Below the pieces are notes generated by a model. The model was not told the origin of the DNA. It did not search any database and was given only the letters and a program-made list of their open reading frames with translations. A DNA stretch of 59,585 bases from Patescibacteria group bacterium (lineage in GTDB: Bacteria; Patescibacteriota; JABMPQ01; JAQVVF01), in NCBI GenBank assembly GCA_028699085.1, contig JAQVVF010000006.1:1-59585 (forward strand), in the 5' to 3' direction. Made by a program: the position numbers and the translations under genes. Positions 2,297 to 35,862 of this stretch are shown here, piece by piece; position 1 is the first letter of the stretch; every line of letters begins with the position of its first letter.

Positions 2297-2399
2297 GTTA
2301 CCTGAATTTGATGATTTTTAACTTTAAATCTTAACTGTATTAGAAAGAAAAGCTAAAACCTTGATAACTTTACTGATTAGTGATAAAATATCGCTACTT

Positions 2400-3344
2400 A
2401 TGCTAGATCAAGTTTTAAAAACAATTAAAGATAATAATCTAATCCAGTCTTCTGACAAGATTGTTTTAGGCTTGTCTGCTGGACCAGATTCTGTTTGTTT
2501 GCTTACACTTTTGGCTAAATTAAAACAAGAATTAAATTTTGATTTAGTATTAGCGCACGTAAATTATAATTTGAGAGGAAAAGATTCTTTTTTGGATATG
2601 ATTTTGGCACGTAAACTAGCTGAATTGTATAATTTGCCAATTTATGTCAAAGAGGTAAAAGATTTAGGATTAGAGGTAAAAGGTCTAGAAGAAAAATGTA
2701 GGCAAATTAGATATGATTATTTTAATGAGATTTTAATTAAAGAAAAATGTAATAAGATTGCAGTTGCACACAATAGAGATGATGATGCAGAAACAATTTT
2801 AATGTTTTTTTTAAGAGGCTCAGGATTAAAGGGCTTGAGCGGAATTAAATATCAGCAAAATAATATTATTAGACCTCTTCTGGATTGCTATAAACGCGAT
2901 ATTTTACTTTATTTGAAAGAAAATCATCTAGAATATAGAGTTGATAAAACTAATTTTCAAAAATTATATTTGAGAAATCGAATTAGACATGAATTAATTC
3001 CGTTTTTAGAGAAAGATTATAATCAAAATTTAAGATCAACTATTTGCCAAAGCGCCAAGACATTGAAGGATGATAGCGACTACATTGAAAAAGTTGCGAA
3101 GATTAAATTGAAAGAATTAAGTTTAGATGAAAATTATTTGAAACTGGAAGAGTTTTTGGCTTTAGATAAGTCTTTGCAAAGAGCAATCTTAAGATTAAAA
3201 TTAGCAAAATATAAAGATATTAGCTTTCTAGATCTTGAAGAAGCATTAAGAATTTTGAGAACAGCTAAAAATGGATCAATGCGACAAATTAAAGGGTTGC
3301 AAATTCGAAAGGATTATGACAGAATTATGTTAGTTGCCAGTTGA
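2400..3344 (+). CDS. tilS: tRNA(Ile)-lysidine synthase
   Basis: PP-loop GLSAGPDS and the HNRDDDAET region, with N-type ATP pyrophosphatase layout. Start moved to ATG 2400, preceded by TTGATA-17 nt-TAAAAT at 2360-2388. Confidence 0.85.
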   Translation: MLDQVLKTIKDNNLIQSSDKIVLGLSAGPDSVCLLTLLAKLKQELNFDLVLAHVNYNLRGKDSFLDMILARKLAELYNLPIYVKEVKDLGLEVKGLEEKCRQIRYDYFNEILIKEKCNKIAVAHNRDDDAETILMFFLRGSGLKGLSGIKYQQNNIIRPLLDCYKRDILLYLKENHLEYRVDKTNFQKLYLRNRIRHELIPFLEKDYNQNLRSTICQSAKTLKDDSDYIEKVAKIKLKELSLDENYLKLEEFLALDKSLQRAILRLKLAKYKDISFLDLEEALRILRTAKNGSMRQIKGLQIRKDYDRIMLVAS

Positions 3345-9635: not shown

Positions 9636-9651
9636 ACATTAATTTGCAAAA

Positions 9652-9747
9652 TGGCGGTATCTAATTTGAAATATTAACTCCTTTACGATGTCAACGTAAC
9701 GCCTGCCTGCCGGTAGGCAGGCTCTAGACAACTGAGCTAACCGCCCC
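9652..9747 (-). pseudogene. tRNA-Val(GAC)-derived tRNA-like element, probably a pseudogene
   Basis: Shares a 23-nt identical anticodon arm (GCGTTACGTTGACATCGTAAAGG) and the D arm with the neighbouring tRNA-Val. It carries a 20-nt GC-rich palindrome (CTGCCTACCGGCAGGCAGGC) after the D stem, an AU-only T arm lacking GTTC, and an imperfect acceptor stem. Confidence 0.5.
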
Positions 9748-9870
9748 GTTTTAATAACAAAATAACTAAATTATAAATAACAAAATTTCGGTAATTTTTC
9801 ATTTTGAATTTAGTTATTTTTAATTCGAACTGGGCCTGGTTGGGATCGAACCAACGACCAATCGGTTATG

Positions 9871-10486
9871 CATTTTACTACCACTTTCGTGATTCCTTTC
9901 GGATTTGTAATCTGGACTATCTCTTCTCCAAATACTGGAGCTTGCCGTTTAGTCTCTACACCTTTCCAGCACATAATTTTATGTGCTTGGACTTGGCTCG
10001 GGATTGCCATAGCATATATGCTTTAGGTTTCCCCGAATTTGACAAGATATACTTAAAGATTGCTCTCTAAGCAGCCCTTTGATAATAATGCATTTTATGT
10101 TATACTATAGTTATGATACATGTCATAAGCTGTAAAATTTGTGGAAAAGAATTAAGAGGTAGACAAACGTGCTATTGTAGTATCTTATGTAAAAATAAAG
10201 CTGATCAATCTTATCCAGCACAAAAGAAGCGAGGCATTGCAAGAAAAATTGAACTTATTAATAAATTAGGAGGTAAGTGTACTATCTGCGGATACAAGAA
10301 AAATTTAGCAGCTTTAACTTTTCATCATAAAGTTCCTAAGCTTAAAAAGTTTAAACTTGATATGAGATCTTTATCTAATAGGAAGCTATCTCTAGTTAAA
10401 GATGAAGTCAAAAAATGTATACTGATTTGCCACAATTGTCATGCAGAGCTTCATAACCCTAAACATAATTTAGCATTATATCGTTA
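9871..10486 (-). mobile_element. group I intron, subgroup IC3 (Azoarcus tRNA-Ile / cyanobacterial tRNA-Leu type)
   Basis: The minus-strand core contains GUCAAAUUCGGGGAAACCUAAAG, UAUGGCAAUCCCGAGCCAAG and GGUGUAGAGACUAAACGGCAAG, near-identical to the Azoarcus ribozyme as I recall it. P7 is GACUA/UAGUC, there are two GAAA-capped hairpins, and the last nucleotide is G at 9871. Exact splice sites are predicted, not proven. Confidence 0.8.
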
Positions 10487-10487
10487 A
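10113..10487 (+). CDS. HNH homing-endonuclease-like protein, encoded antisense inside the group I intron
   Basis: N-terminal Cys cluster CKICGKEL..CYCSILC, then the HNH motif CTICGY..LTFHHKVPK ... LICHNCHAELH. TATACT at 10101-10106 lies 6 nt before the ATG. The TAA stop at 10485-10487 reaches the tRNA anticodon loop. Confidence 0.8.
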   Translation: MIHVISCKICGKELRGRQTCYCSILCKNKADQSYPAQKKRGIARKIELINKLGGKCTICGYKKNLAALTFHHKVPKLKKFKLDMRSLSNRKLSLVKDEVKKCILICHNCHAELHNPKHNLALYR

Positions 10488-10564
10488 GCCGACCGCTCGT
10501 ACCACTGAGCTACAGGCCCAAGATAAATTAATTGTTAAAAGTGCTAGTTTAAATTTATCTCATT

Positions 10565-10594
10565 TTGAACTTTTAGTCAATTATATGTTATACT
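10565..10594 (+). promoter_or_regulatory. sigma70-like promoter (TTGAAC-18 nt-TATACT)
   Basis: TTGAAC at 10565-10570, TATACT at 10589-10594. Confidence 0.4.
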
Positions 10595-10615: not shown

Positions 10616-11176
10616 ATGTTAAAACAAAAACCTATTAAAGTTCATGTACCGAAGTTTCTAAGCCCCAAAAATATTTTAAGCCAAGCAGGAATTGCTCAAG
10701 ACATGAAAGTGATTGATTTAGGTTGCGGATCTGGATATATGGCTTTTGAGGCTGCAAGATTAGTTGGACCATCTGGAATTGTTTATGCAGTTGATATTCA
10801 AAAACCTGTTCTTTCCAGCATTAGATCAAATATTCAATTCTATGGATTAAGAAATGTGAAACCAATTTGGGCTGATATTGAAAAAACAAATTCAATAGGG
10901 ATAGAAGAAAATAGCTTGGACATGGTATTGATTATTATGAATTTATATCAAGCAAGACAACATGATGCAATTCTTTCAGAAAGCTATAAAATGTTAAAAC
11001 CAGAAGGCAGATTACTAGTTGTTGATTGGAAAAAAGAAGCAATTCCAATGGGGCCAGATGTAAAATTTAGGATTTCTTATGATGTTGCCCGTAAAATGGC
11101 ACAAAACGTTGGCTTTAAGTATGTCGGTGACATTGAAACAGATCCATATCATTTTGGAATACTCTTCAAGAAATAA
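10616..11176 (+). CDS. class I SAM-dependent methyltransferase
   Basis: Motif I VIDLGCGSGYMA, motif II-like VYAVDI, post-motif LKPEGRLLVVD. Confidence 0.8.
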   Translation: MLKQKPIKVHVPKFLSPKNILSQAGIAQDMKVIDLGCGSGYMAFEAARLVGPSGIVYAVDIQKPVLSSIRSNIQFYGLRNVKPIWADIEKTNSIGIEENSLDMVLIIMNLYQARQHDAILSESYKMLKPEGRLLVVDWKKEAIPMGPDVKFRISYDVARKMAQNVGFKYVGDIETDPYHFGILFKK

Positions 11177-35136: not shown

Positions 35137-35745
35137 ATGAATATTATAATTCTGTGGTTTATAAGATTTGCCTTTAGTACATTAACCTTATTTGAATTAG
35201 GTAATCTGTTCGGTATTTTTCATTTTGAAATTGATTTTAGCTGGCTTGGACTATCTCTTACAGCTTTAGCTGTTTGGATCGGTCTAGAGTTTGTTCTGTA
35301 TTATGTTAAGAAGAAATTTAACTATACGATTCCATCTTTTGTATTTCTGATCCCTTTGGCAAATATTTTAATTGATTTTTTTGGAGATTTTTGTAAGTTA
35401 TATAGTAGGATTTCTTGGTATGATCAGATGGCTCATTTTTTAGGTGGGGCGTCTGCAGCTGGAGTAACTTTTTTCATAGTCTGTGCATTACTAAAAAGAA
35501 GACGAGTCGATTTTAAAAAATATTTGATTGGTAGCTATGCTTTTTTTGCAGCCTGCTTTCTTGGAACAATCTACGAGCTTGAGGAATATGCAGAAACACT
35601 GTTTTTAGGCAATAATAGACTCGGAGATAGACTTGATACTCCAAATGATATCTTTTTCAATACGATTGGTGCGCTAATCGGAGTATTCATTGTCTATCTG
35701 TATGTTAAACTGACTGACACATTGAGTAAAACCGAAGAGAAATAG
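35137..35745 (+). CDS. polytopic membrane protein (about 202 aa), function unknown
   Basis: Six hydrophobic segments. Conserved-looking WYDQMAHFLGG and DTPNDIFFNTIGA. Start moved from TTG 35107 to ATG 35137. Confidence 0.65.
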   Translation: MNIIILWFIRFAFSTLTLFELGNLFGIFHFEIDFSWLGLSLTALAVWIGLEFVLYYVKKKFNYTIPSFVFLIPLANILIDFFGDFCKLYSRISWYDQMAHFLGGASAAGVTFFIVCALLKRRRVDFKKYLIGSYAFFAACFLGTIYELEEYAETLFLGNNRLGDRLDTPNDIFFNTIGALIGVFIVYLYVKLTDTLSKTEEK

Positions 35746-35786
35746 TTAATTTATAATTTTTAATTTAGTTATTTTGTTATCATATT

Positions 35787-35862
35787 GGGCCTGTAGCTCA
35801 TCTGGTAGAGCGCCTGCTTTGCAAGCAGGAGGTGAGCGGTTCGAGTCCGCTCAGGTCCACCA
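35787..35862 (+). tRNA. tRNA-Ala (anticodon UGC), CCA encoded
   Basis: GGGCCTG TA GCTC ATCTGGTA GAGC G CCTGC TTTGCAA GCAGG AGGTG AGCGG TTCGAGT CCGCT CAGGTCC A CCA, with the G3-U70 identity pair. Confidence 0.95.

Follow-up and report, generated by a model that had tools for sequence, protein, structure and literature searches.

A Probable Homing Element in a Likely tRNA-Ile2 Gene of a Bacterium: a Group I Intron with an HNH Nuclease Gene Antisense in Its P1 Loop

Here we describe a split tRNA gene in a stretch of 59,585 nucleotides from a Patescibacteria group bacterium (assembly GCA_028699085.1, contig JAQVVF010000006.1, positions 1 to 59,585), which is called the window in the following. 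The gene lies on the minus strand between positions 9831 and 10519, and it is probably a tRNA-Ile2 gene that is interrupted in its anticodon loop by a group I intron, with an HNH endonuclease gene placed antisense in the loop of the P1 helix. The ribozyme core of this intron is under selection, as judged from covariation across 23 homologues, and the same nuclease family is found in or beside the intron at some 47 loci and in none of 120 intron-less ones. We infer splicing, the transcription starts, the activity and target of the nuclease, and homing from the anatomy of the locus. This anatomy had been proposed in a preliminary description made from the letters of the window, and all coordinates and strings given there were found in it.

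Bacterial tRNA introns have been sorted into 21 classes in a preprint from 2020 (doi 10.1101/2020.01.27.920355), among them position-2 introns of Met-like and Ile2 tRNAs. Group I introns are mentioned in passing as frequent in the tRNAs of the candidate phyla radiation (CPR) in a paper from 2021 (PMC8172020). The intron class itself is thus not new. An antisense HNH gene in such an intron of a CPR-type genome was considered not to be a standard case in the preliminary description, and we found neither an antisense nor an HNH endonuclease gene in a bacterial tRNA intron in the literature, although absence there is no proof.

Results and Discussion

ARAGORN finds the split gene, with an intron of 616 nt, once introns are allowed. 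At its default settings it misses the gene, as does the Rfam tRNA model in the scan of the window. The parts of the gene are the following.

10487..10519, minus strand: tRNA 5' exon, positions 1-33, last base U33 (ARAGORN with introns allowed and spliced cloverleaf; conserved in 25 homologous loci)
9831..9870, minus strand: tRNA 3' exon, C34 to the discriminator A73, no encoded CCA (ARAGORN with introns allowed; comparison of homologous loci)
9871..10486, minus strand: group I intron, 616 nt, omega G at 9871 (Rfam RF00028; U(-1)/omega-G rule)
10552..10580, minus strand: promoter-like site of the tRNA gene, TTGACT, 17 nt, TAAATT, 33 nt upstream of tRNA position 1 (consensus match only)

Joined as had been proposed, the exons 10519-10487 and 9870-9831 (minus strand) give a sequence of 73 nt, GGGCCUGUAGCUCAGUGGUACGAGCGGUCGGCU followed by CAUAACCGAUUGGUCGUUGGUUCGAUCCCAACCAGGCCCA, which folds as a tRNA and is called tRNA(cat) by ARAGORN. 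The splice site falls between U33 and C34 of the CAU anticodon loop, where the junction is GGCU/CAUAA (the slash marks the splice site), and the ligated exons are predicted to read GGUCGGCU/CAUAACCG. Applied to the homologues, the rule that the exon ends in U(-1) and the intron in omega G gives an identical junction in all of them, and the corrected junctions of the loci with an antisense HNH gene all read ...GGCU/...G/CAUAA.... The junctions set by ARAGORN in the related split genes are off by 2-3 nt, with the names Leu(caa/taa/cag), Ser, Gln(ctg) and Arg(ccg). These names were dropped, because re-mapping by the same rule makes all related split genes CAU tRNAs.

We now consider the ribozyme. 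A covariance-model check, which had been suggested for this locus, was run with Rfam RF00028 (Intron_gpI) and gives a match at 9890-10096 of the minus strand with 85.0 bits, above the gathering score of 50 (E=3e-20, full model 1-253). The helices of the core, all on the minus strand, are located as follows.

9871..10071, minus strand: ribozyme core P2-P9 (pair counts on 23 sequences)
10071-10064/10059-10052, minus strand: P2
10046-10041/9946-9941, minus strand: P3
10036-10031/10003-9998, minus strand: P4
9997-9995/9962-9960, minus strand: P6
9954-9950/9919-9915, minus strand: P7 (GACUA/UAGUC)
9940-9935/9931-9926, minus strand: P8
9911-9907/9878-9874, minus strand: P9, with P9a and P9b each carrying a GAAA loop

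The pairs were counted on an alignment of 23 "mini-introns", each made up of the exon ends and of the intron from the guide to its 3' end. The structure used for the counting was drawn by hand from P1 to P9, including the P3/P7 pseudoknot, and has 61 pairs. Over the whole structure 97.3% of the cells are paired, and both sides change at 37 of the 61 pairs. None of 500 shuffles matches the observed pairing, and when the partners are slid by 1-3 columns only 31-47% of the cells remain paired. Compensatory changes are abundant in P2, P6a, P8, P9, P9a and P9b, and the fifth pair of P7 covaries as well (A-U in 15 sequences, G-C in 8). The ribozyme is thus under selection. In the window all core helices are intact and consistent with this covarying consensus, and P2, P4, P7, P8 and the terminal G at 9871, which had been folded by hand before, all belong to the structure that covariation supports. 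A pairing of the guide GGGCUG with the 3' strand of P7, put forward by RNAalifold, was rejected, since it shows only one-sided change and the canonical P7 covaries.

Compared with five published seed introns, the core is 73-83% identical over the aligned positions, a range by which the classes cannot be told apart. In the database cited in the 2020 preprint (doi 10.1101/2020.01.27.920355), every classical bacterial tRNA intron is listed as IC3, and the present intron is here called IC3-like. Its P9 domain of two hairpins resembles that of the fMet.2Ug, Met.2Ug and Leu.3Ug seeds. By nhmmer the window's core lies directly beside the nuclease gene in the antisense-HNH loci, and Rfam group I cores were confirmed in both antisense loci of the Rfam sample (L004 and L022).

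The elements around the 5' splice site, again on the minus strand, are these.

10072..10077, minus strand: internal guide sequence GGGCUG, partner of the exon end CGGCU (10491-10487) and intron nucleotide +1 (10486) (read from the sequence)
10447..10483, minus strand: P1 extension, 5' strand, antisense of the last HNH codons (RNAduplex, three helices)
10080..10120, minus strand: P1 extension, 3' strand, antisense of the HNH promoter and start codon (RNAduplex, shuffles)

The candidate P1 with its U-G pair, as already drawn in the preliminary description, agrees with the guide at 10077-10072 and the wobble U10487.G10076 at the 5' splice site. Both this wobble and the terminal G9871 at the 3' splice site are invariant in the 23 homologues. 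The P1 pairs are likewise invariant (97.8% paired), and covariation therefore neither supports nor contradicts P1.

The guide lies far from the exon that it pairs with, and the intervening flanks belong to the nuclease cassette: the intron opens with 40 nt that are complementary to the last HNH codons, where the conserved His-Asn-Pro is encoded, and the guide is preceded by 45 nt that are complementary to the HNH promoter and start codon. In the window these flanks form a duplex of three helices with -23.0 kcal/mol (RNAduplex). Over 22 loci the mean duplex energy is -22.4 for cognate flanks vs -15.2 for non-cognate ones. The two outer helices, a and b, covary and beat 1000 of 1000 partner shuffles, and the inner helix, GUUAUG/CAUAAC, is conserved, shows no covariation and does not beat the partner shuffles. 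In a fixed-column test the pairing of the outer helices reaches only 59-69%, as their register varies from locus to locus, and register-free duplex energies were preferred to fixed-column covariation for this element. The 10-bp helix 10482-10473/10091-10081 that had been noticed earlier is real, with 10 pairs and one bulged U, and forms the outer part of the longer duplex 10483-10447/10120-10080. In an ORF-less relative (a homologous intron lacking the open reading frame, ORF; L024) the same outer helix is closed by a GCAA loop.

We next turn to the opposite strand, on which the following features were found.

10113..10487, plus strand: HNH endonuclease gene, 124 aa, antisense to the tRNA, TAA overlapping U33 (ORF, PHROG, Pfam, homologues, AlphaFold2)
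10079..10106, plus strand: promoter-like site of the HNH gene, TTGATA, 16 nt, TG-n-TATACT (promoter scan, 10/12 consensus matches and an upstream TG)

The ORF is the only sizeable one within the intron. Its product matches PHROG 2255, a phage HNH family, with E=2e-18, and the PHROG HNH families altogether with 2e-18 to 1e-14, which agrees with its earlier reading as an antisense HNH protein of 124 residues. A protein search returned 437 relatives with the invariant Cys, His and Asn. Ten residues (C56, C59, H71, H72, N89, C106, N108, C109, H110 and H114) are invariant in 28 sequences, as are four further cysteines (C7, C10, C22 and C26), and the protein of the window keeps every one of them. 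The AlphaFold2 model is confident, with a predicted local distance difference test score (pLDDT) of 90.7. A profile search of the PDB gave at best only E=0.06, and sequence and fold searches together brought no close solved relative (best E=0.06-0.1).

The cassette is tightly packed into the intron. On the plus strand, the complement of the guide, CAGCCC, directly abuts the -35-like hexamer of the HNH promoter, and the -10 box, the TATACT with its upstream TG that had been pointed out before, ends 6 nt ahead of the ATG, which implies a leaderless HNH mRNA. About 18 loci share this layout, with CAGCCC 34-36 nt and a TATAAT-like box 6 nt ahead of the ATG. At the other end, the TAA stop at 10485-10487 shares one base with U33, in line with the overlap with the anticodon loop described earlier. 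This overlap was at first thought to be peculiar to the window, which is ruled out by its recurrence: it is seen likewise in 7 other loci (8 of ~20), and in 8 further loci the stop codon lies 8-11 nt inside the intron. With the stop at the splice site and the promoter next to the guide, the cassette fills the P1 loop completely.

The box TGTTATACT precedes not only the HNH gene but also the next gene, at 10616, and it thus looks like a normal promoter of the host. This next gene past the tRNA (10616-11176) is methyltransferase-like and has the same extended -10 box, TGTTATACT, within 10565-10594 (plus strand). No terminator-like site was found between it and the HNH gene, so that HNH transcripts could run through the tRNA 5' exon and promoter into the methyltransferase-like gene.

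The identity of the split tRNA requires some care, since both tRNA-Ile2 and tRNA-Met genes have the anticodon CAU. We are quite confident that it is tRNA-Ile2, on firmer grounds than those of the preliminary description, which had considered this identity probable. The spliced sequence has a non-initiator body (G1-C72 paired, U12-A23), and the initiator tRNAs adjoining related loci differ from it, starting with CGCGGGG. The acceptor stem is GGGCCUG/CAGGCCC, with G3-C70, C4-G69 and C5-G68. Met and fMet are described as excluded by G3 or A3 together with C70 or T70, and C4-G69/C5-G68 as frequent in Ile(CAT) (PMC1635315). Furthermore, C4-G69, C5-G68 and G27.U43 are determinants for E. coli TilS, and G27.U43 is an anti-determinant for the tRNA-Met acetyltransferase TmcA (PMC2500205, PMC12069591). 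G3-C70 is present in 25 of the 26 intron-bearing copies, and G27.U43 in the window and in all 26. The metagenome contig L100 allows an assignment by elimination. It has three CAU tRNAs: an initiator, a Met-like one with C3-G70, and an intron-less one of the window's type that agrees with the spliced exons of L020 at 73 of 73 positions. On contigs L102 and L146 the tRNA type of the window is likewise separate from a C3-G70 Met-like tRNA. The window also contains the gene for the modifying enzyme, as had been stated before.

2361..3344, plus strand: tilS, tRNA-Ile lysidine synthetase (PF01171 E=2e-49; TIGR02432 175 bits vs cut-off 93.6)

A hit to the SGGxDS motif was not tilS but a ThiI-like protein only, and profile searches then located the gene. 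In the 30 long ORFs of the window, AUA makes up 194 of 12,478 codons, i.e. 18% of the Ile codons. BLAST against E. coli tRNAs was also tried as an isotype test. It names the window's tRNA "tRNA-Ile", but does the same for a Met-like CPR tRNA and calls a Saccharimonadia copy "tRNA-Asn", and it was dropped as evidence because it is not discriminating.

The alternative would be that the split gene is an elongator tRNA-Met, which would leave the self-splicing intron and the antisense HNH gene unchanged. ARAGORN does name the tRNA Met, as it does any CAU tRNA, and the seed with the most similar architecture is labelled Sba135.Met.2Ug in the 2020 catalogue. Moreover, C4-G69/C5-G68 is not conserved among the homologues, and the Saccharimonadia copies start with GGGGG. 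These points are outweighed by the G3-C70 and G27.U43 pairs, by the distinct Met-like tRNA that accompanies the window type on L100, L102 and L146, and by the fact that the same HNH family also accompanies classical Ile2.5Ug introns. A tRNA-Met is thus improbable.

Another question is whether the locus is alive at all. The split tRNA has no encoded CCA, and the window's tRNA-Val, tRNA-Ile(GAU) and tRNA-Ala have one. This difference to the other three tRNAs had been noted earlier and it stands, but it is specific to this locus: CCA is encoded in 16 of 25 homologous loci and absent in the other 9, and its lack is consequently no sign of decay. One can imagine an inactivated tRNA gene with an intron that no longer splices, while an intact tRNA-Ile2 elsewhere decodes AUA. 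Besides the missing CCA, the degenerate tRNA-Val-like fragment immediately downstream would fit this scenario, and only 59.6 kb of the genome are visible. On the other hand, all core helices are intact, the exons give a perfect cloverleaf, the HNH ORF is intact, and the missing CCA recurs in the 9 homologous loci. We therefore regard an inactivated gene as highly improbable.

The fragment just mentioned lies at 9640-9748 (minus strand), between the interrupted tRNA and tRNA-Val(GAC). It starts with a good acceptor and D-arm 5' half, GGGGCGGUUAGCUCAGUUGUCUAGAGC, followed by an 18-nt hairpin, CUGCCUACCGGCAGGCAG, and a 23-nt exact copy of the tRNA-Val anticodon arm, after which come a pseudo T-arm rich in AU and then ACCGCCA. 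It is called neither by ARAGORN nor with the Rfam tRNA model, where E is up to 1.

To see how widespread the element is, we made use of a scan with one genome per species, in which at least 572 loci encode HNH relatives; 80 of these were fetched. At ~47 loci an HNH homologue with 42% identity or more is located within or beside an intron-bearing tRNA(CAU) gene. With the junctions corrected and the loci checked by eye and with Rfam, four arrangements are seen, all of them on tRNA(CAU).

Antisense in P1 of a position-2 intron: ~25 loci; Gracilibacteria, Moranbacteria, Saccharimonadia, other Patescibacteria, Chloroflexota, and metagenome-assembled genomes labelled Bdellovibrionales
Free-standing near an ORF-less position-2 intron: 2 loci; L002 and L024
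Free-standing, divergent, 63-138 nt upstream of a classical Ile2.5Ug gene: 15 loci; Gammaproteobacteria, including isolates
Sense inside an Ile2.5Ug intron: 5 loci; Bacteroidota, Rhodothermales

The antisense arrangement was found within tRNA introns of 558-651 nt at 25 loci, with two more being probable. In the Gammaproteobacteria (L023, L025, L027, L029-L034, L036-L039, L042 and L046; e.g. L030:1600-2400) the intron is ORF-less and inserted after U36, and the carriers include the cultured Thermomonas sp. LB-4 and Lysobacter daejeonensis GH1-9. The sense-embedded genes (L040, L041, L043, L045 and L047, at ~1920-2690), one of them in Emticicia agri, lie in an intron of 665-689 nt at the Azoarcus position. 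Two cases speak for mobility. L011 and L024, both from Chloroflexota, share the same 5' exon sequence, and a minority of the core positions differs between them. The cassette of ~370 nt is in the intron of L011 and not in that of L024, where the nuclease gene is free-standing upstream of a tRNA cluster. The nuclease gene of L002 (Gracilibacteria) lies 1.5 kb away from an ORF-less intron and still has its TATAAT-6-ATG promoter.

Intron-less alleles, which had been proposed as something to look for in related genomes, do exist (L196 and L100). A metagenome scan for the uninterrupted junction gave at least 120 loci, and some of the intron-less tRNAs match the spliced exons of an interrupted gene with a difference of at most 1 nt. 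The empty site L196 is collinear with L020: the exons are 97%, the spacer 65% and the neighbouring tRNA-fMet 100% identical, and there is no intron. The 120 intron-less loci, 734 kb in total, all lack both the nuclease and the ribozyme core. Of the 29 loci examined with an intron-associated HNH gene, 26 have it intact (24 of 27 where it is inside the intron) and 3 have it decayed, with stops or frameshifts, as would be expected from repeated rounds of invasion and decay.

A few further observations concern other tRNA genes. More distant HNH relatives accompany introns in tRNA-Phe and in tRNAs that are ambiguous between Thr and Asn. At L004:1714-2761 (Moranbacteria), the tRNA-Ile2 with the antisense-HNH intron adjoins an interrupted tRNA-Phe(GAA), whose group I intron is ORF-less, has 247 nt and follows U33; both introns have Rfam matches. 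The Saccharimonadia-type loci (L013, L019, L020, L021, L044, L100, L195 and L196) have the tRNA-Ile2 0.5-1.2 kb from an initiator tRNA. In Solirubrobacterales and other Actinomycetes (L056, L060, L063, L071, L075, L077 and L079), an uninterrupted tRNA-Asn(GUU) gene is preceded on its own strand by a distant HNH relative, which ends ~40-80 nt before it and is 39-47% identical in the catalytic half; as far as scanned with ARAGORN, none of these seven loci has an intron-containing tRNA. In the Klebsiella phages KpS110 and Bullseye (H21-H23), a tRNA(CAU) that is 84% identical to the spliced tRNA overlaps or abuts a feature called "HNH endonuclease", and in T5-like phages (H47-H48) a tblastn match to the window's HNH protein lies under a feature annotated "tRNA-Ala".

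It is now appropriate to collect what weighs against the reading as a homing intron in tRNA-Ile2. The placement of the splice site rests on the U/G rule and the restored cloverleaf, with a P1 that does not covary. The protein scores 21.3 bits with Pfam HNH (PF01844), just under the cut-off of 21.4, and the fold matches are weak (best E=0.096, TM-score ~0.3), nearly all of them being HNH nucleases. Concerning the tRNA, the E. coli comparison fails to tell Ile2 and Met apart, the Met.2Ug label is carried by a published seed whose core is very similar, and the census of CAU tRNAs in the organism's own genome is limited to the visible 59.6 kb, so that a second intact tRNA-Ile2 could lie outside. 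The transcription of the HNH gene is directed head-on to the tRNA promoter and may keep the gene silent. Finally, the initiator tRNAs nearby share the anticodon-loop sequence GGCTCATAACC and are never interrupted in the Saccharimonadia-type loci.

The last two of these points would also fit a scenario in which the ribozyme splices but the HNH protein is not, or never was, a homing endonuclease here. The gene would then be a silent, decaying passenger or a nuclease with another role, kept because its ends form the P1 extension. The 3 decayed copies among 29 are in line with such a scenario, as is the pairing of the cassette flanks in the precursor, due to which part of the cassette sequence could be conserved for the RNA alone. 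However, the catalytic and zinc-binding residues are invariant across phyla at an overall identity of 60-70%, 26 of 29 copies are intact, and the promoter layout is conserved. In addition, the family occurs only where the intron is present (~47 loci vs 0/120 intron-less ones), and it is also found free-standing beside ORF-less introns. We thus consider a nuclease without a part in homing unlikely, though not negligibly so.

With a homing intron in tRNA-Ile2 as the preferred and probable interpretation, the following sequence of events can be proposed. The precursor would be transcribed from the minus strand, and P1 would set the 5' splice site by pairing the exon end CGGCU and intron nucleotide +1 with the guide GGGCUG ~410 nt downstream. 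The two strands of P1 would be brought together by the interrupted duplex of roughly 25-30 bp that is formed by the ends of the P1-loop insert. An exogenous G would attack after U33, and the terminal G9871 would then mediate exon ligation, which would restore the loop CUCAUAA. Before reading AUA, the spliced tRNA would need CCA addition and lysidine at C34, the latter presumably from the window's TilS. The HNH protein, which we take to be the homing endonuclease of the element, would introduce a nick or cut near the anticodon of tRNA-Ile2 genes that lack the intron, and repair would copy the intron with its cassette into them.

Several known systems can be compared with this element. The group I intron in the tRNA-Ile(CAU) gene of Azoarcus sp. 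BH72 (class Ile2.5Ug; Reinhold-Hurek and Shub 1992; cryo-electron microscopy PMC13168695) has the same type of host tRNA, a compact IC3-like core and GNRA loops. The J3/4-P4, P6 and P7 strings are near-identical (AAAUUCGGxGAAACCUAA, CAAUCCCGAGCCAAG and GGUGUAGAGACUA), and Azoarcus-class introns in Gammaproteobacteria adjoin the same HNH family as the window's. The Azoarcus intron differs in being inserted after U36 rather than U33, in a guide that pairs with CAU instead of GGCU, in its length of 205 nt with no ORF, and in a P9 of one hairpin instead of two. The likeness to Azoarcus asserted in the preliminary description is thus correct for the core strings, which are common to bacterial tRNA introns, and it does not extend to the insertion site, here U33/C34.

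The tRNA-fMet intron of Synechocystis PCC 6803 (fMet.2Ug) shares the insertion between U33 and C34 of a CAU loop, and its I-Ssp6803I gene, like that of the window, lies in P1 and overlaps ribozyme sequence (PMC3073962). Its host is an initiator tRNA and I-Ssp6803I is a PD-(D/E)XK enzyme, whereas the window's is HNH. Furthermore, the I-Ssp6803I ORF is presumably on the intron's own strand, while that of the window is antisense and has its own promoter. The Met.2Ug and Ile2.2Ug classes agree with the window in position 2, U(-1) and omega G (doi 10.1101/2020.01.27.920355). The seed Sba135.Met.2Ug also has the P1 GGCU/GGGCU and a two-hairpin P9, whereas the core of the Ile2.2Ug seed (Gba28) differs. 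The preprint is confined to the mapping of junctions; it states that introns of more than ~400 bp may contain genes, and the HNH family, its orientation and its promoter are not described there.

Endonuclease genes that are antisense, sit in a peripheral loop and have their own promoter are known from nuclear rDNA introns of myxomycetes (I-DirII, I-DsqI; PMC9548176, PMC3073962). These introns are eukaryotic, encode His-Cys box nucleases and use P9 or P2-type loops of rRNA introns. Their genes have a Pol II promoter, spliceosomal introns and polyadenylation, with the two transcripts in separate nuclear compartments. In the window, by contrast, a bacterium has an HNH gene in P1 of a tRNA intron, with one RNA polymerase for both strands. 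Free-standing homing endonucleases can mobilise ORF-less introns ("collaborative homing"), e.g. in T4-like phages and cyanophages. The loci of the Gammaproteobacteria, L002 and L024 are similar, with the HNH gene outside an ORF-less intron of the same tRNA and only where the intron is present. Those cases concern protein-coding genes of phages, whereas the HNH loci are on bacterial chromosomes, concern a tRNA gene and are known from sequence alone.

A more far-reaching interpretation is that the HNH cassette, with its promoter, leaderless ORF and flanking inverted repeats, is an autonomous module that entered tRNA-Ile2 introns on several occasions, and that its antisense form is wired into the ribozyme as a control or addiction circuit. 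In this form, the ends of the cassette may act as the helix that assembles P1, and its promoter may overlap the guide region. The HNH mRNA may be fully complementary to the precursor of the AUA-decoding tRNA, and it contains three AUA codons. We consider this idea rather unlikely.

As to the rest of the window, its G+C content is 33%, and its sequence occurs in the sequencing run SRR22315503. The 16S rRNA (region 32796-35862) has an insertion near model position 455, with ~90 nt in place of the expected 6 nt. The G+C content, this insertion and the labels of the nearest HNH and tRNA relatives suggest a Patescibacteria-like host. Downstream of it, tRNA-Ile(GAU) and tRNA-Ala(UGC) are 1 kb apart, with two membrane-protein-like ORFs between them (34863-35123 and 35107-35745), and no 23S rRNA was found downstream of the 16S within the window.

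Conclusion

The arrangement described here, a bacterial group I intron with an endonuclease gene on the opposite strand and a conserved promoter abutting the guide sequence, is not described in the literature that we found. The coding ends of this antisense nuclease gene double as the helix that closes P1. If the cassette were indeed wired into the ribozyme, nuclease expression and the maturation of tRNA-Ile2 would antagonise each other, which would amount to a built-in control or addiction circuit.

A single HNH family appears to be dedicated to the tRNA-Ile2 genes of at least five bacterial groups, in free-standing, sense and antisense form. We did not find this tie in the literature, where absence is no proof. 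The three arrangements offer a natural series for the idea that nucleases begin as free-standing partners of ORF-less introns and become part of them at a later stage.

For organisms with tiny genomes, the tRNA that reads AUA, 18% of the Ile codons in the window, may depend on self-splicing before TilS can act on C34, its target, which adjoins the splice site. Standard gene finders miss the split gene or, with introns allowed, name it Leu, Ser, Gln or Arg, and the genomes that carry the element therefore appear to be without a tRNA-Ile2.

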